Positions 33,680 to 56,414 of a stretch of DNA of 64,000 nt are shown one piece after another (position 1 is the stretch's first letter; every line of letters starts with the position of its first letter). Under the pieces are notes generated by a model. It was not told the origin of the DNA. It did not search any database and saw nothing but the letters and a program-made list of their open reading frames with translations. A program made the translations under genes and the position numbers. The stretch comes from a virus. The DNA lies in IMG/VR virus record IMGVR_UViG_3300032308_002092, positions 32,001 to 96,000 of that record, one strand, 5' to 3'.

Positions 33680-35086
33680 TTACTTGCCTGGGATCTTTAC
33701 TGTTTTAGACCAGGTGCGTTCTACGAACGGATGTTTTTCAGTACCGTCCTTCTCGATAACCCAAAGCACTTCTGGGAATCTTTGGTTTGGTCTTAGCCAG
33801 CTTTCTACACCTACGTCGCTGAAGTGTCCGTCAGTAAAAACTAGTGTCAAATCCGGGCTAGTCTTCAACACGTTCTTGAGTGTGTCTTCTAAGTCTGTGC
33901 CGCCCATCTTAACGTTGTTTCGTATGGTCTCTTGCCCTACTCGATCGCCCATCTTGTACGGTTGACTGTGGTACTCTTTATCAGAGAAGAGGTGTAGCGA
34001 GCACTTACGCGCGCCTGCTTTTAGGAACTCATCTACCACTTGTAGGAAGTTATTGAGCGTCTCTACGCTGATACTGCCGCTCGTATCGCACACTATGCGC
34101 AGCTTCGGCAACGGACCTTCCTTACTACCAGGGATCAGGTTTGGAAACCGCCTGCTCTTCCTAGTCCACGAATACCTACGGTCCTGCCCAGAAGCAGATT
34201 TCTTGATCGCAGCAAGTATGAGGGCTTTGTAGTTTAGTTCTGCTCGCCTAGACTTGATCTCTTCTAGCAGCTTGCTGACCATAGCGGGTAGTCTGTCATG
34301 ACCAGTAGATGACTTGATCATGGCTCGCTTCACCAGATCTTCCATGGCATCCAGCATCTCGTCTTCTTCTGCGTTGGCTTCCCAGCCGTGGCTGTCGAAC
34401 TCTTTTGGTATGCCCTTACCTTTACCCTTACCTTTGCTTTGGCCATCCCCATCACCATCTTCGCCGTCTTCGCCATCTTCTGGCTCTTTGTAGCGATCTT
34501 TTAGGCGTAGGAAGTACTGCTCCATGGTCTCGTTCTCTGGCCAAGGTGTCTTTTTGCCTTTGTCGTCTTCGTCGTGGAAGTTCTTGGCCAGCATGGCGTG
34601 ACCGGGACATAGTTCGTTTTGGCAAGCAGCGCCTTGCTGTAATTCTTCTATTGGCGGGCATTCCTTGCAGCCAGCCGGTAAGTCTCTGATGTAGTTGTTT
34701 ATTGCGAGATCTGCAGCGATATTTAGCAACTTACGGTTGTGGTTAGATATCTTGAAGAACGGCACACGTGTCAAATGTTTGTGCACTAAGTGAAACAACT
34801 CATGAAGTAGAACAGCTCTTCTATTTTCTTGACTTAGTTTCTTCACAAAAAACATAGGGTTAATGAGAAGCATATACTTCTTCTGATCAGCGCTAAAAGT
34901 AACACCAGCTGTATCTAGTTGAAAACTATAGGTAATGTCCATGCTTTGTAGCATAGAGCAATAGAAGGTGTTGTCCTTATAAATTTCATACAAAGCAGTC
35001 GCCAAAGCCTGAGAGCGTTCAGCCTCAGTTGTCGTGTCTTTAGCGGCTTTATCTGTAGATTTAAAAATAGTAGCAGGTGCGTTCAT
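33680..35086 (-). CDS. DUF2201-type metallopeptidase + vWA-like domain protein
   Basis: HELFH, N.AAD.AIN; DTSGS MIDAS, GGTD and FTDG motifs. Confidence 0.85.
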   Translation of the reverse strand: MNAPATIFKSTDKAAKDTTTEAERSQALATALYEIYKDNTFYCSMLQSMDITYSFQLDTAGVTFSADQKKYMLLINPMFFVKKLSQENRRAVLLHELFHLVHKHLTRVPFFKISNHNRKLLNIAADLAINNYIRDLPAGCKECPPIEELQQGAACQNELCPGHAMLAKNFHDEDDKGKKTPWPENETMEQYFLRLKDRYKEPEDGEDGEDGDGDGQSKGKGKGKGIPKEFDSHGWEANAEEDEMLDAMEDLVKRAMIKSSTGHDRLPAMVSKLLEEIKSRRAELNYKALILAAIKKSASGQDRRYSWTRKSRRFPNLIPGSKEGPLPKLRIVCDTSGSISVETLNNFLQVVDEFLKAGARKCSLHLFSDKEYHSQPYKMGDRVGQETIRNNVKMGGTDLEDTLKNVLKTSPDLTLVFTDGHFSDVGVESWLRPNQRFPEVLWVIEKDGTEKHPFVERTWSKTVKIPGK

Positions 35087-37079: not shown

Positions 37080-37382
37080 TTACTCCTTGTACTCTTTGAT
37101 CTTGGCCTTAATCTCTTCTACGGCTTCTTCAGCATCCTTCAGGGAGTCCTTGACATCTACGTCATCAGGGTACTTGCGTGCTTGTTGGCGCCAGAAGATG
37201 AGCTCTTCCTGCGCTGCGCGTAGCTGGGCCTTAAGCTCGTTTAGCGAGACCCTCTTCTCTAGAGCGTCGACTTGCGCCGCCTTAGCGTACCTGCTATCCA
37301 CCCAAGTGATTCCGCCAAACACAGTACCTGCCACTGCTACAATCGCAGTGAATAGCGTTAAGTATCCTTTTGCCTTGTCCAT
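37080..37382 (-). CDS. Membrane-anchored coiled-coil protein
   Basis: N-terminal TM plus coiled coil. Confidence 0.55.
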   Translation of the reverse strand: MDKAKGYLTLFTAIVAVAGTVFGGITWVDSRYAKAAQVDALEKRVSLNELKAQLRAAQEELIFWRQQARKYPDDVDVKDSLKDAEEAVEEIKAKIKEYKE

Positions 37383-37398
37383 AACGTATCTCCTTTAG

Positions 37399-37722
37399 TT
37401 AAAATTCTGAAGGCGTACCAACTGCGGTGCCGATACCATCGCCTTCGTCTTCGTTAAAAGTGTTGTCGCCATCGCCGTTCTCGTAGCCGTACATACTTCC
37501 AAAACCTTCTCCGTCGCCATCAGTAGAGCCAGTTAAGGGTCGTTTTGGAGATAATCTGATGATTGGGGAATCGTACTGATGGCCGCTACCCAACCCACCG
37601 CCAAAGACATACCCATATCGCTCTCCGTAGCCAGCGCCGTTGCCGTCTTGTGGGTATCCGTACTGACGATACCCATACCCGTTTATGGGTAGCACCTTCT
37701 CATTATCTTCGGTTTTACTCAT
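37399..37722 (-). CDS. Gly/Asp/Tyr-rich mini-protein, array member 8 (ends PSEF)
   Basis: LPINGYG...PSEF; alternative TTG start at 37743. Confidence 0.7.
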   Translation of the reverse strand: MSKTEDNEKVLPINGYGYRQYGYPQDGNGAGYGERYGYVFGGGLGSGHQYDSPIIRLSPKRPLTGSTDGDGEGFGSMYGYENGDGDNTFNEDEGDGIGTAVGTPSEF

Positions 37723-37736
37723 ATATTTATACTCAC

Positions 37737-38003
37737 TCACCAATCCGATGGGTTAAAATCGTCTCCATCGCCGCCACCATCCCCATCACCATCACCGCCG
37801 TCTCCGTCACCGAAGCCGTTTCCAAACGGATTGCCGTGCCCGTAGCCACAGTCATCGAAGCCGCGATTGCCATGGCCACAACCGTCACCACTCATGCTTC
37901 CATAGTCGTGGCCATAGCCGCAGCCAATGCCGTCACCCCCTATGTTTCCATAGGCTCCATCACCATAGCCATCTATATCGAACTCTTCCGTTAATACTTC
38001 CAT
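37737..38003 (-). CDS. Gly/Asp/Tyr-rich mini-protein, member 7 (PSDW)
   Basis: FDIDGYG...PSDW. Confidence 0.75.
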   Translation of the reverse strand: MEVLTEEFDIDGYGDGAYGNIGGDGIGCGYGHDYGSMSGDGCGHGNRGFDDCGYGHGNPFGNGFGDGDGGDGDGDGGGDGDDFNPSDW

Positions 38004-38006
38004 TAC

Positions 38007-38231
38007 TCACCACTCTGATGGCGGTATTTCTTCATCGCCGATACCGAAGCCATCTCCGTCGAATAGTCCATATACATCGCTACCGCTACCGTCCCCACCA
38101 CCAATGACATCCCCATATCGCGCTCCGTACCCATCGCCGTCGCCACGGCCATGGCCTGTACCGCCGCCGCGTTTATTGGTGTAAGGGTCTGCGTAACCGT
38201 AACCAATGCCATCTATCTCCAACTTATCCAT
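38007..38231 (-). CDS. Gly/Asp/Tyr-rich mini-protein, member 6 (PSEW)
   Basis: LEIDGIG...PSEW. Confidence 0.75.
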   Translation of the reverse strand: MDKLEIDGIGYGYADPYTNKRGGGTGHGRGDGDGYGARYGDVIGGGDGSGSDVYGLFDGDGFGIGDEEIPPSEW

Positions 38232-38237
38232 GTCACC

Positions 38238-38483
38238 TCACCAGTCCGATGGAGAGTAACCGTTGCCATCGCTATAACCATGCCCATCGCCGTCGCTTTC
38301 TCCGATATCGCCCCATCCTTCTCCGTCGCCGTTGCTATAACCGCATCCGTAGCCGTTGCCGTAACCTTCATCGTCAAAGGCGTCATACCATTCATGGTTG
38401 AGTTCTCCGTAACCGATGCCGTCGCCGTATGCGCCACTATCGCCATGGCCAAAACCGTCTATTGCCAACAGATATACTTCCAT
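38238..38483 (-). CDS. Gly/Asp/Tyr-rich mini-protein, member 5 (PSDW)
   Basis: LAIDGFG...PSDW. Confidence 0.75.
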   Translation of the reverse strand: MEVYLLAIDGFGHGDSGAYGDGIGYGELNHEWYDAFDDEGYGNGYGCGYSNGDGEGWGDIGESDGDGHGYSDGNGYSPSDW

Positions 38484-38487
38484 CTAC

Positions 38488-38733
38488 TTACCGCTCCGAG
38501 GGGTTGGTATTGAAATGGAGGTTACTGGCTGCGCCTTGGTAGCCGTATTCTTTATCGTACCCTCCGCCATCTAGCGCATGCTTCCAGTACGCGTCATCGT
38601 GGTAAGGGTGGCCACAACCGTCGCCATTGGATGCGAGAATATATCCTTCACCGTCTCCTCTGTTGTCACCGTTGTGCCAGCCATCGACTCCATCACCGTA
38701 CCCATCTATTTTTATCTCGTCTATTGTGGTCAT
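38488..38733 (-). CDS. Gly/Asp/Tyr-rich mini-protein, member 4 (PSER)
   Basis: IKIDGYG...PSER. Confidence 0.75.
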   Translation of the reverse strand: MTTIDEIKIDGYGDGVDGWHNGDNRGDGEGYILASNGDGCGHPYHDDAYWKHALDGGGYDKEYGYQGAASNLHFNTNPSER

Positions 38734-38737
38734 CTGC

Positions 38738-38977
38738 TCACCGGTCTGAGGGGTTTAAGTGGGTGTGGTCTTCATCGTCTTCTATCCCCACACCATCGCA
38801 CCAACCTCCGTAGCTATCTCCATATCCCAAACTGTAGCCGGCATGAATCCGTATGCCGCAGCCGTGGCCGTCGCCATTAAAATCACCACCTTCTCTACAC
38901 GTGCCAAAGCCTTCGCCATTCAAGCGGTTATCTTCCGTACCCCAACCATTTATGTCTATCTTCTCTGCTACGATCAT
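38738..38977 (-). CDS. Gly/Asp/Tyr-rich mini-protein, member 3 (PSDR)
   Basis: IDINGWG...PSDR. Confidence 0.75.
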   Translation of the reverse strand: MIVAEKIDINGWGTEDNRLNGEGFGTCREGGDFNGDGHGCGIRIHAGYSLGYGDSYGGWCDGVGIEDDEDHTHLNPSDR

Positions 38978-38980
38978 TGC

Positions 38981-39199
38981 TCACCAGTCCGACGGGTCGT
39001 TAAGGAAGTAGTCTATCTCGCCAGAAGGCTCCAAATGACCGCTGTCTTGGCTGCCATCTTTGTACATAAAGTAGTAACCGAAGCCATCTCCGTTGAATAG
39101 TCCGTATATATCGCCGTAGCCAACGCCGTCGCCCACTTCGATCGTAGAAGACCAGCCGTCACCATAGCCATCTATTTCTAGGGTGTGCGTAGTTACCAA
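38981..39199 (-). CDS. Gly/Asp/Tyr-rich mini-protein, member 2 (PSDW)
   Basis: LEIDGYG...PSDW; TTG start overlapping the previous stop. Confidence 0.7.
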   Translation of the reverse strand: MVTTHTLEIDGYGDGWSSTIEVGDGVGYGDIYGLFNGDGFGYYFMYKDGSQDSGHLEPSGEIDYFLNDPSDW

Positions 39200-39462
39200 T
39201 CTGAGGGGTATCCTTCTGTTGAGCAGTAGCCTGTTATCTTTATAGGTGAACCGCTCCCGTCTCCAGTATGACTACCCCAACCATTAGAATAATCGTGGCC
39301 GCCACCATCGCCGTCGTCGTCTGTGTCAAAGTTAGTTGAGAACTGACCATAGTAGTGGCAGTACCCTTGTCCGTTGCCATTTTCAAACAACTTGTATCCG
39401 ATAAAGGATGCTGCGTCCTCTGATCCAATGCCAGTTATGGTTAGCGGTTCTGCCAACTCCAT
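39193..39462 (-). CDS. Gly/Asp/Tyr-rich mini-protein, member 1 (PSDW)
   Basis: LTITGIG...PSDW. Confidence 0.75.
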   Translation of the reverse strand: MELAEPLTITGIGSEDAASFIGYKLFENGNGQGYCHYYGQFSTNFDTDDDGDGGGHDYSNGWGSHTGDGSGSPIKITGYCSTEGYPSDW

Positions 39463-39855
39463 CTACTCAGCTTCCTGGTCCTTGGGTTGAGACTTCTTGG
39501 CGTGCTTGTTGCAAGTGTGTCTGATCCAGTAGCCTTCGTCTGGACCCACGTCCTCGCCAGTGCCGCACACTGAACATATGTTTCCAGTGATGATCTCGTA
39601 GGTGTCGGTTATACTGGTTATAACTTTGTCTACGTTGTCGCCATAGTCGTGCGTGTAGTAACACCGCAGTGTTCCAAACTTCTCTTTGATCTGAGAGAAC
39701 CTGATCCTGGGGAATAGCGAGACTAGTGTACCCACGTAGTTCTCGATTACTTGGTCCCAACCCTCAGGGGTCTCGATTGTCCTACCGCGTAGGTATTGAG
39801 AGAACTGCTCTGGGTACTTGTCGAATAGTTTTTTAGTAATGTCTTGGCTGCTCAT
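39463..39855 (-). CDS. Conserved phage protein (QIKEKFG.LR family, CxxC)
   Basis: QIKEKFGTLRCY...CSVCG...W....C..H. Confidence 0.7.
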   Translation of the reverse strand: MSSQDITKKLFDKYPEQFSQYLRGRTIETPEGWDQVIENYVGTLVSLFPRIRFSQIKEKFGTLRCYYTHDYGDNVDKVITSITDTYEIITGNICSVCGTGEDVGPDEGYWIRHTCNKHAKKSQPKDQEAE

Positions 39856-39862
39856 TTTATCC

Positions 39863-40108
39863 TCACTCATACTCGTTGTGGAAACGGACTTCTTTGAGAA
39901 GAGGTCCCTGACCAAAGGCGTGGCCAAACTCGTCCACCTTGGTCACATTGATCGAGTCTGTATCCATGTGTTGCCAAACGACTACGTAAGCATGGAACGA
40001 CTCTGTCTGCGTAGGGTCTTGGAACAAGCCCAGGACCTTGTGCTTGCCATCAATCAGATAAGTCTTGCTTGCGTCGATTCTCTGTGATCTCTTTGATGAT
40101 GCGTACAT
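39863..40108 (-). CDS. Hypothetical protein
   Basis: ORF; start uncertain. Confidence 0.45.
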   Translation of the reverse strand: MYASSKRSQRIDASKTYLIDGKHKVLGLFQDPTQTESFHAYVVVWQHMDTDSINVTKVDEFGHAFGQGPLLKEVRFHNEYE

Positions 40109-41471: not shown

Positions 41472-42596
41472 TTACTTGGCCTTGTTGAGCTTGATGTTAG
41501 CTTTCAGAACTTCTACGAGCTGAGGGTGCTTGGCTGCGAGGTCTTTGAAGAAGGTAGCTACGTTAGTTCCCTTACCGCTTTGGCCGCAGCTTCGAAGTAG
41601 GTCGATCGCCAAATCGCTTGGGATGATGCTGGCTACTTCGACCATCAAGTCTTCGCTGATCTCATTCTCTTTAGGCTCGCGTCCACCGTAGTTCTTGGAG
41701 ATAGACTCAATGGTTACTGAGATGTAGTCGCCCTTGTAGTTACTTGGGTTGCTCTGCTCTTTCAGCTTCTTGAGCGAAGCGGATTTGCTAGTGAGCAGAT
41801 CTTGCGCTGTAACTGGAGCTTCAGTGTGAACATACTTCCAGAACTCGCTGCCAATGCCTTTACCCAAGATGCTGATGCACAGCTGTCGGTGCATGGTTCT
41901 ATCTTCTAGACCACCCGACTTGTGAGCTGCGTTCAGCCTACTCCATGTACGAGGAGAGATGTATACTGAGTCCTTGCCCAAGGAGCTAGGCTCTTTGTAG
42001 ATCCAAGCGCCAGACTTCACGAAGTTTTGGATATGGTCGCAGAACTTGTTTGTCTCCATGAAATCAACGAAGCCGTTGTGATCATAGTCGATATCGAAGT
42101 GAACGAATCTGTCTTTAAGCGCTGTGTCTGCGGAGTTCGTATCGTACTCTGAGGACTCTGGGTTGTTAGATGTAGCGATTACCCAACCACTCGGTAGCTT
42201 ATAGTTAGGGCCGACGCCTCGACTAGCGTCAGTGAGCTGCATCAAGCAGTTCATTACCGCAGACGTAGATCTGAGCGACTCGTCGAGAAAGATGAGTCCC
42301 TCTGAGTCTTTACCTCGTGGCCAGAACTCCGGAACATAGTGCGTCGTGACCTTACTACCATCTTCCAGTCTTTCCTGTTGCGGTAAGCCGATGAAGTCAG
42401 GTGCTTCCAAGAACGCACAGCGAAGCATCAAGAAACCGAAGTCAGGGTTTCGCTTTCTTTGCTTCTCAACCCACTGCATGACCTGCTCAGTCTTGGAAAG
42501 ACCGGCATGGCCAATGAAGGATGGGTTCAAGGTGTATCCTTGCTTGCGGGCATTGAGGGCTAGATCGAGAACATCTGAAATTTTACTAGGTTTCAT
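41472..42596 (-). CDS. AAA+ ATPase (MoxR/dynein-related, DUF2201-associated type)
   Basis: Walker A variant GHAGLSKT, IFLDE, ALKDRF, SPRTW. Confidence 0.8.
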   Translation of the reverse strand: MKPSKISDVLDLALNARKQGYTLNPSFIGHAGLSKTEQVMQWVEKQRKRNPDFGFLMLRCAFLEAPDFIGLPQQERLEDGSKVTTHYVPEFWPRGKDSEGLIFLDESLRSTSAVMNCLMQLTDASRGVGPNYKLPSGWVIATSNNPESSEYDTNSADTALKDRFVHFDIDYDHNGFVDFMETNKFCDHIQNFVKSGAWIYKEPSSLGKDSVYISPRTWSRLNAAHKSGGLEDRTMHRQLCISILGKGIGSEFWKYVHTEAPVTAQDLLTSKSASLKKLKEQSNPSNYKGDYISVTIESISKNYGGREPKENEISEDLMVEVASIIPSDLAIDLLRSCGQSGKGTNVATFFKDLAAKHPQLVEVLKANIKLNKAK

Positions 42597-53889: not shown

Positions 53890-54186
53890 TTACGCTTCGG
53901 ATGGATACTCACTATCGTCGCCGTCACCGCGACCATCGCTATTTCCGGTATTGCCATCGCCGTCGGTGTGGCCATAATTAGTGCCAAAGCCGTAGCCATC
54001 CCCGTGGGTAAGTATGAACTGCTCGTCTGCATCTCTGTGACCAGACGCATACCCATCCCCTTCTAGGCAGAAGAAGTAGAAACAATGGTGCTGATCATTT
54101 CCATAGCCGTTTCCACTCATATATTTACTCATATACATAGAGTGGGGTGATCCGCTACCATCTATTTCTAGCTTGCCTGTGATCAT
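53890..54186 (-). CDS. Orphan ninth Gly/Asp/Tyr-rich mini-protein (ends PSEA)
   Basis: LEIDGSG...GDGYG...PSEA. Confidence 0.7.
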   Translation of the reverse strand: MITGKLEIDGSGSPHSMYMSKYMSGNGYGNDQHHCFYFFCLEGDGYASGHRDADEQFILTHGDGYGFGTNYGHTDGDGNTGNSDGRGDGDDSEYPSEA

Positions 54187-54677
54187 TTATCATACTTCCT
54201 AAACCTAGGTTTAGTGAATAATTCTTTGACACAGTAGTCCCATTTGTCTTTTGCCATATTGATCTTGTTTCGATCGATGTAGGTGCTGATCAAACAACTA
54301 TCGTCATCGTGGTCCTGGTCTATAGCGTGGCCTAGCTCGTGGTACATGGTCATCCTAAGATCGGGCGTCTGCGGGTCGATCACTATAGATCTGATCACGC
54401 CATACTGTGGGGTAGCTTTGTCTTTGAATGAGTTAGATTCCCTCATCCACCCCCACCTACTACGGTGGACACCGATAGTGTTGTCTTCTAAGTCGCCCCA
54501 TCGAATACTAGTTATGGTCTCTTTGGCTACGTTGCACTCTTTGCGGTAGTCGGTATTCTCGCAATCTGCAAAGAACTGCTCTACGTATGGTCTGAGATCA
54601 GGGTCTATGTCCATGTCGTCGACCAACGTAGAGCCGCAAGAGGATAGTAGTGGCAGCAAAACAAGTAGCTTTTTCAC
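54183..54677 (-). CDS. Lipoprotein zinc metallopeptidase (HExGH)
   Basis: LSSC lipobox; YHELGHAI...H. Confidence 0.7.
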   Translation of the reverse strand: MKKLLVLLPLLSSCGSTLVDDMDIDPDLRPYVEQFFADCENTDYRKECNVAKETITSIRWGDLEDNTIGVHRSRWGWMRESNSFKDKATPQYGVIRSIVIDPQTPDLRMTMYHELGHAIDQDHDDDSCLISTYIDRNKINMAKDKWDYCVKELFTKPRFRKYDK

Positions 54678-54700: not shown

Positions 54701-55819
54701 TCACTTTACTTGGAACTTATACTCATCTTGAGTTACAAGTCGGAACGTAGACCCGCCGTCTACAGAGATCTCAAGAGCGAGAGCGATCTGTGTTGCTGGG
54801 CCTTGGAAGTAATCGATCGAGAAGGAATGCCATCCTGGTAATGCCCATGCGGTACCGTTCTTGGATTGCGGAGGATGTAGACCGTCGTTGTCGATGATCG
54901 TGATCTCGCAATCGCCAAGGCGGAATCTTGCACCGTCGTCGCTGGTCAATCTGAAAACACACTTGTCGTCTTTGCAAGCAGGTAGCTCGATGAATCCTCG
55001 GTATTGGATGCCGTACCATGTTGTCTTCGTAAATGCCGGCGTAAAGGTGCCTGGGTAGCCCAAGCTTGACTGCCTGTTGAATATAGACAGATCGTTGACC
55101 TTAACCGAGGAGACGGGCGTCATGGAGCTGTAGTTGGGTATCGAAGGCGTGTTGACTGCAAGGTCGTATACGTTGCCCTTGAGACCGAATGACCAGCAGC
55201 CGCCAGCGCAGCCATCGTTGATCACAGTCGTGCCGTTAGCGCAAGTGATAGTGGTCTGACCCAGCGAGTTAGTGCCTAGCGTACAGCCGACGCCATCTTT
55301 TCCGTCTTTACCATCCTTACCAGCAACACCTGTGTTACCAGTATCGCCTTTGTCACCCTTAGGGCCTTGGAGGAGTTTGTAAGCAGTCGAGTCGGTACAG
55401 CGAACCCATCCGTCTGACGTGACTGTGCAAGACGTTCCGTTAGTTCCATTGGTTCCGTTAGTTCCATTAGCACCCTTGTCGCCTTTATCTCCCTTATCTC
55501 CTTTGTCACCCTTAACGGAGACAAACTCAAATGCCAATCCATTAGGACACTTAACCTTAACCATGCCGCTCTCTACTTTGGAGATGCACTGGTTACAGTC
55601 TTTTGAGTTAGGAAAGGCAGGTGGCAGAGCAACTGTTTGACCGCCAGTACATGTAAGCGATGCGCCATCTGGTGTGACTGTGCAAAGCCCGAGTTCTTGG
55701 TCCTGCATGTCTACTGAGCCTTGTGGTGCTTCCTCACCCGGAAGAGGGACAGTCATTGTGGGCTCGCCACCACATGCGGAAATCAACAACGGAACTATAA
55801 AAACAAACCTCTTAAGCAT
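54701..55819 (-). CDS. Lipoprotein with collagen-like repeats and C-terminal PA14 domain
   Basis: ISAC lipobox; (GDK)n/(GTN)n repeats; F.L.SDDG...IDNDGLH...DYFQGP. Confidence 0.8.
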   Translation of the reverse strand: MLKRFVFIVPLLISACGGEPTMTVPLPGEEAPQGSVDMQDQELGLCTVTPDGASLTCTGGQTVALPPAFPNSKDCNQCISKVESGMVKVKCPNGLAFEFVSVKGDKGDKGDKGDKGANGTNGTNGTNGTSCTVTSDGWVRCTDSTAYKLLQGPKGDKGDTGNTGVAGKDGKDGKDGVGCTLGTNSLGQTTITCANGTTVINDGCAGGCWSFGLKGNVYDLAVNTPSIPNYSSMTPVSSVKVNDLSIFNRQSSLGYPGTFTPAFTKTTWYGIQYRGFIELPACKDDKCVFRLTSDDGARFRLGDCEITIIDNDGLHPPQSKNGTAWALPGWHSFSIDYFQGPATQIALALEISVDGGSTFRLVTQDEYKFQVK

Positions 55820-55832
55820 ACTCTCTCCTTGT

Positions 55833-56414
55833 TTAGAAATTAAATCCACCGGTTACATAGAAGCTTTGTTGTAAAGTAAAAGCAGCACCAAGCGACAAAG
55901 AACTGAAGTCCCTGATATACATAAGCCCGACATCTGGCTCGTACTTGGCTTTAGCGGTTGCGGTACAGCACGAGTCAACCGTGGCATATGGTTGAGTCTT
56001 AGACATACCGAGCAAGAACATCAGTCTGTTTGGGTCAGACACAGTTACCTTCTTGATCTCGGTGCGGATGCGGACGCGTTCGATGTAACGCACTGGAGCT
56101 TCCTTCCTAGATCCAGAAGTATCGCCAACGTTGATATTGAAACGGTTCACGTTGATGTTGTTAACATCTGTTTGAACACCGTCTTTGTCACAGCAAGGAT
56201 CTACCTTATCTACGACCTTAATCTCAGGCTTAGCAACCACTGGCTTGACAACCGCAGGCTTAGTAACTACAATGGTCTTCTTTGGCTTAGGCTTTGTCGC
56301 TTTTTTAAGCGGACACGGAGCCTCTGTTTTAGCTTTCTGCTCTGTTGCTTCGCAGACAGAACCCAAAGCAATACTGGGTAAAACCATTAGATACAAAATA
56401 CCAAGACGCTTCAT
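55833..56414 (-). CDS. Exported protein with C-terminal amphipathic beta strands ending in Phe
   Basis: Signal peptide; ends FYVTGGFNF. Confidence 0.55.
   Translation of the reverse strand: MKRLGILYLMVLPSIALGSVCEATEQKAKTEAPCPLKKATKPKPKKTIVVTKPAVVKPVVAKPEIKVVDKVDPCCDKDGVQTDVNNINVNRFNINVGDTSGSRKEAPVRYIERVRIRTEIKKVTVSDPNRLMFLLGMSKTQPYATVDSCCTATAKAKYEPDVGLMYIRDFSSLSLGAAFTLQQSFYVTGGFNF

Follow-up and report, generated by a model that had tools for sequence, protein, structure and literature searches.

Why should a phage carry, side by side, eight small genes whose products begin and end alike and differ widely in between? The question is raised by positions 37,399 to 39,462 of the DNA analysed here, a stretch of 64,000 nucleotides (the window) that represents bases 32001-96000 of the 151,207-bp IMG/VR virus record IMGVR_UViG_3300032308_002092, with a CheckV completeness of 91%. 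From sequence comparison, the family in the window is best explained as a lineage-specific, anciently amplified form of the glycine-rich (Gly-X) open reading frame (ORF) that in phages and prophages stands behind a gene for a DUF6948 protein with a predicted Sm-like fold. We hypothesize that the mini-proteins are detachable disordered tails or partners of this Sm-like protein, and we give that partnership as a whole a probability of about 0.45. Any particular downstream effect, such as the tuning of nucleic-acid binding or the building of an assembly, has far lower odds.

The array had been described from the letters alone, without database searches, as eight consecutive ORFs of 72-107 amino acids (aa) with fixed ends. 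This sequence-only reading is confirmed by ORF reading, motif counts and profile scores, and all eight ORFs lie on the minus strand. A related phage, represented by five Logan contigs (the longest, L010, of 29 kb), has a syntenic nine-copy array with the same ORF boundaries. The copies in the window are as follows.

39193..39462, minus strand: copy 1, 89 aa, beginning M-E-L-A-E-P-L-T-I-T-G-I-G and ending Y-P-S-D-W; its L010 ortholog is 49% identical
38981..39199, minus strand: copy 2, 72 aa, with a TTG start overlapping the last codons of copy 1, ending D-P-S-D-W
38738..38977, minus strand: copy 3, 79 aa, starting 3 nucleotides (nt) past the stop of copy 2, ending N-P-S-D-R
38488..38733, minus strand: copy 4, 81 aa, ending N-P-S-E-R; its L010 ortholog d5 is 49% identical
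38238..38483, minus strand: copy 5, 81 aa, net charge -18, ending S-P-S-D-W
38007..38231, minus strand: copy 6, 74 aa, ending P-P-S-E-W
37737..38003, minus strand: copy 7, 88 aa, 35% Gly, net charge -19, ending N-P-S-D-W
37399..37722, minus strand: copy 8, the last of the array, 107 aa, ending T-P-S-E-F; its ortholog d9 is 59% identical
53890..54186, minus strand: solitary copy, 98 aa, ending Y-P-S-E-A, its start overlapping (ATGA) the stop of the gene at 54183-54677

The start of copy 8 was placed at the ATG that matches its ortholog. The solitary copy had been called an orphan; it is indeed a ninth copy ending PSEA, but a profile search of the genome, followed by reading, located seven further copies outside the window at genome positions 97933-100668 (L009:1933-4668). 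This second locus consists of an upstream group of five copies (genome 99156-100668), interrupted by a MORN-like gene, and a downstream pair (genome 97933-98388). In total, the genome holds 16 copies in three places. The best within-genome match of each copy is at most 49% identical, which indicates that the amplification is old.

Judged from the nucleotide sequence, the copies are genuine protein-coding genes, and the remaining long frames in the array result from a hexamer repeat. In the autocorrelation, GGY triplets lie in codon frame 0 and recur at lags of 6, 12, 18 and further multiples, with a 5.1-fold signal at lag 6 and 0.49-fold at lag 5. Codons of the GGR type make up 24% of the glycine codons in the copies and 25% genome-wide. 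Over 25 copies, the codons of the C-terminal motif run through CCA, CCT, CCC and CCG for Pro, all four TCN codons for Ser, and four codons for Asp/Glu; because these vary synonymously, it is the C-terminal peptide that is conserved. The same observations bear on a non-coding explanation, in which the GGY-rich tandem structure in a phage would represent repeat RNA comparable to the VIPR guide RNAs of GGY/NN units. The VIPR vrRNAs are tandem 5-nt YNNGG units, a non-coding RNA beside a RAMP (Vipr) gene (bioRxiv 10.64898/2026.04.26.720920). Here the repeat unit measures 6 nt instead of 5 and keeps to the codon frame, the third position of the Gly codons varies as freely as it does genome-wide, the amino-acid motifs survive synonymous change, starts and stops are conserved, and Rfam at gathering thresholds gave no match over the whole window, so the chance that the array is a guide RNA is practically negligible.

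By its layout the array is one operon, translationally chained. Copy 1 has its ATG at the base right after the stop of the upstream gene, the distances between copies range from an overlap up to 14 nt, and a consensus scan of the minus strand detected neither promoter-like nor terminator-like sites within the array. The gene ends of the form ...TGG TGA G look like ribosome-binding sites for the following copy, and an AAGGAG ribosome site for the next gene comes after copy 8. Such a double role of TGG TGA G may help to retain the final Trp. It cannot explain the Pro-Ser-Asp/Glu before it, because copy 8, at the end of the array, and the solitary copy have kept these residues too.

The eight ORFs and their relatives form one family beyond chance, as far as motifs and profile scores can establish this. 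Motifs were counted over 25 copies, the 16 of this phage and the nine of its relative. The N-terminal pattern hydrophobic-x-I-[DNT]-G-x-G matches 22 of them, and the remaining three have variants; at the C-terminus, Pro is present in 23/25, Ser and Asp/Glu in 25/25 each, and the final Trp in 17/25. A profile built from the nine window copies recovers copies in the genome at E values of 1e-13 to 5e-25, and two copies held out of the model still score 5e-14 and 2e-9. For the invariant Ile of the N-motif, 20 of 22 copies, which are not independent samples, use ATA, as against 25% ATA among the Ile codons genome-wide, while the adjacent Leu, Asp and Gly codons vary freely (examples in the window are 39433-39441, 38453-38461 and 54163-54171). 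This bias could reflect selection at the RNA level, e.g., for a translation ramp or a binding site.

The view that no known family can be assigned stands. A profile search with the family, the kind of check that had been proposed, returned only 22 matches among 1.84 billion representatives. All the short matches come from this phage clade, whereas the long ones (four of seven read) are repeat proteins rich in Asp/Gly or in Ala/Gly/Pro, of which P0015 and P0018 are thrombospondin-type-3-like. In Pfam and PHROGs, nothing below E 0.07 was found for any of the nine window copies, and a profile search of PDB sequences yielded no more than matches by composition, to a G-patch at E 0.22 and to RG-rich S10 tails. 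A tblastn search of copy 5 against 50,697 phage records, with the low-complexity filter on, found no match. Pattern scans of IMG/VR and JGI with M-D-K-L-E-I-D-G and N-P-S-D-W-stop returned 0, 42 and 10 stretches with no family member among them. The JGI contig L015 (3300084705) carries, at positions 27-544, two tandem 85-aa copies with PSEA/PTEA-type ends, of the same subtype as the solitary copy.

In composition, all 16 copies are alike: they have an isoelectric point of 4.1-4.6, a net charge of -7 to -19, 19-35% Gly, 7-18% aromatic residues and few Lys or Arg, with Gly at alternate positions. Among 179 G-X-G sites, X is Asp in 56, Tyr in 32 and Asn in 11, and Ser and Cys are also common. In these respects they all match the Gly-X partners of DUF6948 proteins, taken as net acidic ORFs of some 50-125 aa in which Gly alternates mainly with Asp, Tyr or Asn. 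The interiors had been called rich in GDGxG repeats, Tyr, His and Cys; Gly, Asp and Tyr do dominate, but His (0-6 per protein) and Cys (0-5) are modest. The monomer structure prediction proposed earlier yielded no fold: the AlphaFold2 model of copy 5, from an alignment of 27 sequences, has a mean predicted local distance difference test score (pLDDT) of 45 and no secondary structure, and the ESM Atlas model has a pLDDT of 0.38. According to these models, the mini-proteins are intrinsically disordered, strongly acidic (Gly-X)n chains.

This bears on the suggestion that the two ends close a metal-binding beta-roll. An RTX beta-roll found no support: HemolysinCabind is absent at E values up to 1, Gly recurs with a period of two residues, unlike the GGxGxDxUx nonapeptides of RTX proteins, and no beta-roll appears in the AlphaFold2 model. 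A looser version, in which Asp-Gly-Asp-Gly-type loops fold when loaded with Ca2+ or another metal, would be compatible with the Sm-like partnership. Asp is the most frequent residue between glycines, D-x-D-x-D-G strings occur in some copies, and the profile weakly matches the thrombospondin-type-3-like Ca-binding repeat proteins mentioned above; these weak matches are driven by composition, however, EF-hand matches are lacking as well, and the model has no solenoid. Free Ca2+ is low in the bacterial cytoplasm, and the mini-proteins have no visible secretion signal. The earlier statement that signal peptides are absent is upheld by eye, with no N-terminal hydrophobic signal-like stretch, no predictor having been run. 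We regard metal binding as quite unlikely.

A gene that co-occurs with the family was found in the same genome. It contains a single DUF6948-like gene, at L009:2409-2744 on the minus strand (genome 98409-98744), which matches DUF6948 at E values of 8.5e-5 and 1e-5, both under the Pfam cut-off, and gp018 of Rheinheimera phage Barba1A at 3e-10 in tblastn. The AlphaFold2 monomer model of its product, from 16 aligned homologues, has a pLDDT of 84.7. In Foldseek and VIA-align, nearly all top PDB rows are Sm/LSm proteins (Z up to 8.2, probability 1.0), and a fold search of BFVD returns DUF6948 proteins. The protein is thus predicted to fold as an Sm/LSm barrel. Directly downstream of this gene lie the two family members that had been held out of the model (L009:2170-2388 and 1933-2163), ending Y-P-S-D-W and N-P-S-D-R, and five more copies lie within 2 kb upstream. 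The nine copies of the window are tied to the DUF6948 module because they are homologous to the two copies behind the Sm-like gene, and by no other link.

The same arrangement, a DUF6948 homologue followed by a (Gly-Tyr/Asp/Asn)n ORF, is found in four cultured or complete phages: Rheinheimera phage Barba1A (gp018/gp017), the Manatee Spring isolate ctOK67, Rhodobacter phage RcapNL (gp47/gp46) and Eggerthella phage PMBT5 (gp37/gp38). In these four records the Gly-X ORF is annotated three times as a hypothetical protein and once, wrongly, as lamprin. The pair also occurs in all 10 IMG/VR loci and in 25 of 33 loci from genome assemblies of roughly 15 phyla, where three of the eight exceptions are too short to judge. 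Among assessable loci, it is therefore present in 14/14 phage and 25/30 prokaryotic ones, i.e., in 39 of 44. Many of the partners start with a similar motif, hydrophobic-x-hydrophobic-Asp/Asn-Gly-x-Gly (e.g., L-V-T-L-D-G-Y-G or V-A-I-N-G-Y-G), while the PS[DE]W end is restricted to this phage clade. A separate array of at least seven Gly-X mini-genes stands directly behind the Sm-like gene in L076:2042-4973 (IMGVR_UViG_3300021180_000001); most of its copies begin M-[RK]-L-x-[ST]-[LF]-[DE] and most finish C-D. Since this array is independent, amplification with clade-specific fixed ends has occurred more than once. Moreover, the JGI proteins P0049 and P0050 join a TIGR02996-labelled N-terminal domain, 50-70 residues of (GYGDG)n and DUF6948 in a single chain. 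A literature search found no paper mentioning DUF6948 and no description of the DUF6948/Gly-X pair.

It had been suggested that a common partner reads the ends of the mini-proteins. The DUF6948 Sm-like protein provides a concrete candidate for such a partner, while the docking itself is only inferred. In the proposed mechanism, the mini-proteins would act in trans as low-complexity tails or partners of an Sm-like oligomer. Docking on the Sm-like protein, or on another common partner, would involve the N-terminal strand-like hydrophobic-x-Ile-Asp-Gly-x-Gly, the C-terminal Pro-Ser-Asp/Glu-Trp, or both. The acidic, Tyr-studded Gly-X core would then be the working part, a multivalent, nucleic-acid-like element with one of two roles: it could modulate the binding of nucleic acids in the manner of the acidic tip of Hfq, or it could form an assembly early in infection. 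Spelled out in full, this would be a two-part system of phages from many bacterial phyla, in which an Sm-like ring and exchangeable acidic Gly-Tyr/Asp tails supplied in trans would, early in infection, assemble RNA and protein into a condensate or chaperone complex or adjust such an assembly, here with 16 tail versions sharing their docking ends. In such detail the proposal is rather unlikely.

Several points weigh against the partnership. Expression, a physical complex and RNA binding by DUF6948 are all presumed. The match to DUF6948 reaches 23 bits, below Pfam's curated cut-off of 27, and a predicted Sm-like (SH3-like) barrel is no proof of function, a Z of 8 lying in the range that the tool calls common. 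Nine of the 16 copies, those of the array and the solitary one, are 12-27 kb from the Sm-like gene and have none nearby, and 16 partners for a single Sm-like gene would be an odd ratio. The PSDW end is confined to the clade and may therefore read something other than DUF6948. Finally, homology to the pure (GYGDG)n partners rests on position and the N-motif, because the profile scores are dominated by compositional bias.

In another explanation, the family is an independent library of acidic, nucleic-acid-mimicking decoys or inhibitors directed against host defence or host nucleic-acid enzymes, and the ends dock on a host partner. An acidic end with a terminal aromatic residue, like the tail of single-stranded DNA-binding protein, is presumably one possible form of such docking. 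The strong negative charge, the small size, the placement in an early/middle operon and the majority of copies not adjoining the Sm-like gene speak for a library of this kind. So does the rapid change of the interiors noted earlier, which is borne out by the comparison with L010: array orthologs are 34-59% identical at the protein level, whereas the flanking genes are 77-89% identical, and the copy number is 8 here and 9 there. However, rapid divergence is expected of any disordered repeat, which drifts and slips, and for this reason we do not read it as proof of diversifying selection. The fast-changing cores fit weak or relaxed constraint on a disordered repeat together with slippage of GGN-NAY hexamers, and an arms race is unneeded. 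The known DNA mimics Ocr, ArdA and Ugi are folded proteins, unlike the mini-proteins with no predicted fold, and no match to anti-defence or DNA-mimic families was obtained. As the adjacency to the Sm-like gene and the fusion proteins favour a partner within the phage, we consider the decoy library unlikely.

The neighbourhood of the copies allows further explanations to be weighed. The genes concerned are the following.

39463..39927, minus strand: upstream neighbour in the operon of the array, about 128-154 aa, with its stop directly before the start of copy 1; identity to the L010 ortholog 77%
37080..37382, minus strand: downstream neighbour in the operon of the array, 100 aa, used as a flank in the rate comparison; identity to the L010 ortholog 89%
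41472-42596: MoxR-like AAA+ ATPase, bracketing an 8-kb block with the eight-copy array
33680-35086: DUF2201 protein (metallopeptidase and VWA-like), the other bracket of the same 8-kb block
L009:3600-3896: MORN-like gene, 98 aa, inside the upstream five-copy group of the second locus

The 100-aa downstream protein, read by eye, starts with a hydrophobic segment and continues into a charged region that resembles a coiled coil, and a search for related loci with this gene found no relative. The order of the MoxR-like ATPase and DUF2201 genes around the array is kept in the related contigs L010 and L011. The mini-proteins could on this account be substrates or cargo of a peptide-processing module formed by the ATPase and the DUF2201 VWA/metallopeptidase protein, both of which flank the array in the related phage too. 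Still, these genes are about 2 kb and 2.3 kb away, with several unrelated genes in between, and the other two copy-bearing loci have no such neighbours, which leaves this account very unlikely. When the cultured-phage set was searched at 1e-10, the DUF2201 protein found no relative there. In L010, a SIR2-family gene (L010:4396-4977) stands between a coiled-coil gene and ThyX, and the window has no SIR2 gene there.

The gene at 54183-54677 that overlaps the solitary copy encodes 164 aa with a lipoprotein-type signal and an H-E-L-G-H zincin motif, and a collagen-repeat/PA14-like protein is encoded upstream of it at 54701-55849. The tandem pair on L015 is followed by genes for a DUF7220 membrane protein and a Metallophos protein. 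A Metallophos neighbour shared between this pair and the solitary copy was considered and dropped, as the two Metallophos genes are not homologous.

Conserved ends around a variable Gly-rich core resemble the precursors of ribosomally synthesized and post-translationally modified peptides (RiPPs) or class II bacteriocins, with the variable core between a short leader and a fixed follower, and the N-motif is loosely like a double-glycine leader. The sequence-only reading had also named RiPP-like precursors. The idea does not fare well: no Radical_SAM, YcaO or Peptidase_C39 gene was found in the 91%-complete genome, in a search that detected its controls and covered these three classes only, the putative leader has just 8-13 residues, and the constant neighbour over 39 loci is an Sm-like protein and no maturase. 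We consider a RiPP origin highly improbable.

Capsid-targeted internal proteins injected with the DNA, as in phage T4, are another conceivable identity. The T4-type internal-protein loci likewise comprise many divergent small proteins with a short fixed N-terminal motif, and a polymorphic family with a common N-terminus recalls the T4 capsid targeting sequence, an N-terminal peptide that ends at the cleavage site of the prohead protease. In contrast to the T4 proteins, the mini-proteins are extremely acidic repeat proteins with no sign of capsid targeting, no N-G-Q-W string can be seen in the nine copies of the window, and the array genes lie on the minus strand outside the structural block, which occupies the plus strand at 85-21983. 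The odds for such cargo are accordingly minute.

The major capsid protein of this uncultured phage is only about 30% identical to counterparts from SPO1-like phages, and comparison at the DNA level found no cultured phage close to the 151-kb genome. ARAGORN detected no tRNA or tmRNA gene in the whole genome. A search of sequencing runs found the stretch in one DNA run, which may be the source sample, and listed no RNA runs.

Sm-like proteins that work with low-complexity repeats are known from cellular organisms. In Acinetobacter Hfq, an Sm core carries a disordered C-terminal domain of GGFGGQ repeats with an acidic tip, and RNA regulation is influenced by the number of repeats as well as by the tip (PMC11617691). 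The likeness would be that of an Sm fold working together with a Gly/aromatic low-complexity stretch and acidic residues. Unlike in Hfq, the repeat protein of the phage is a separate gene (N-terminal in the rare fusions) with 16 copies, its Gly-X repeat contains Asp and Tyr and is acidic throughout, and the Sm-like partner is a DUF6948 protein, whose RNA binding is presumed by analogy.

The eukaryotic Sm/LSm proteins SmB, SmD1, SmD3 and LSm4 have tails of Arg-Gly dipeptides; these are basic, form part of the same chain and, once methylated, are recognised by Tudor domains. Common to both is an Sm barrel together with two-residue repeats, Gly taking turns with one other residue; the phage repeats, however, are acidic and encoded in trans. 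The closest likeness is to the DUF6948 (PF22253) pairs of Barba1A, RcapNL and PMBT5, which share the two-gene layout, the composition and the N-terminal hydrophobic-x-hydrophobic-Asp/Thr-Gly start. Those phages have single, near-pure (GYGDG)n partners, whereas the partners described here are 16-fold, more complex, provided with the PS[DE]W end and placed mostly away from the Sm-like gene.

Among the fixed-end versions encountered in our analysis, this one is the largest: it has 16 copies, their N-motif is conserved, and their PS[DE]W end is specific to the clade. In the same genome, members of such an array take the standard position behind the Sm-like gene. What our analysis adds is the association counted over 44 assessable loci and the fusion proteins P0049 and P0050. 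If the pair is a working unit, phages would have a widespread and novel early function that combines a disordered protein with an RNA-chaperone fold. From the 16-copy version with its fixed ends one could then tell which parts are read by the partner, and prokaryotic viruses would have their own counterpart of the repeat-tailed Sm/LSm proteins, with the tail supplied in trans.

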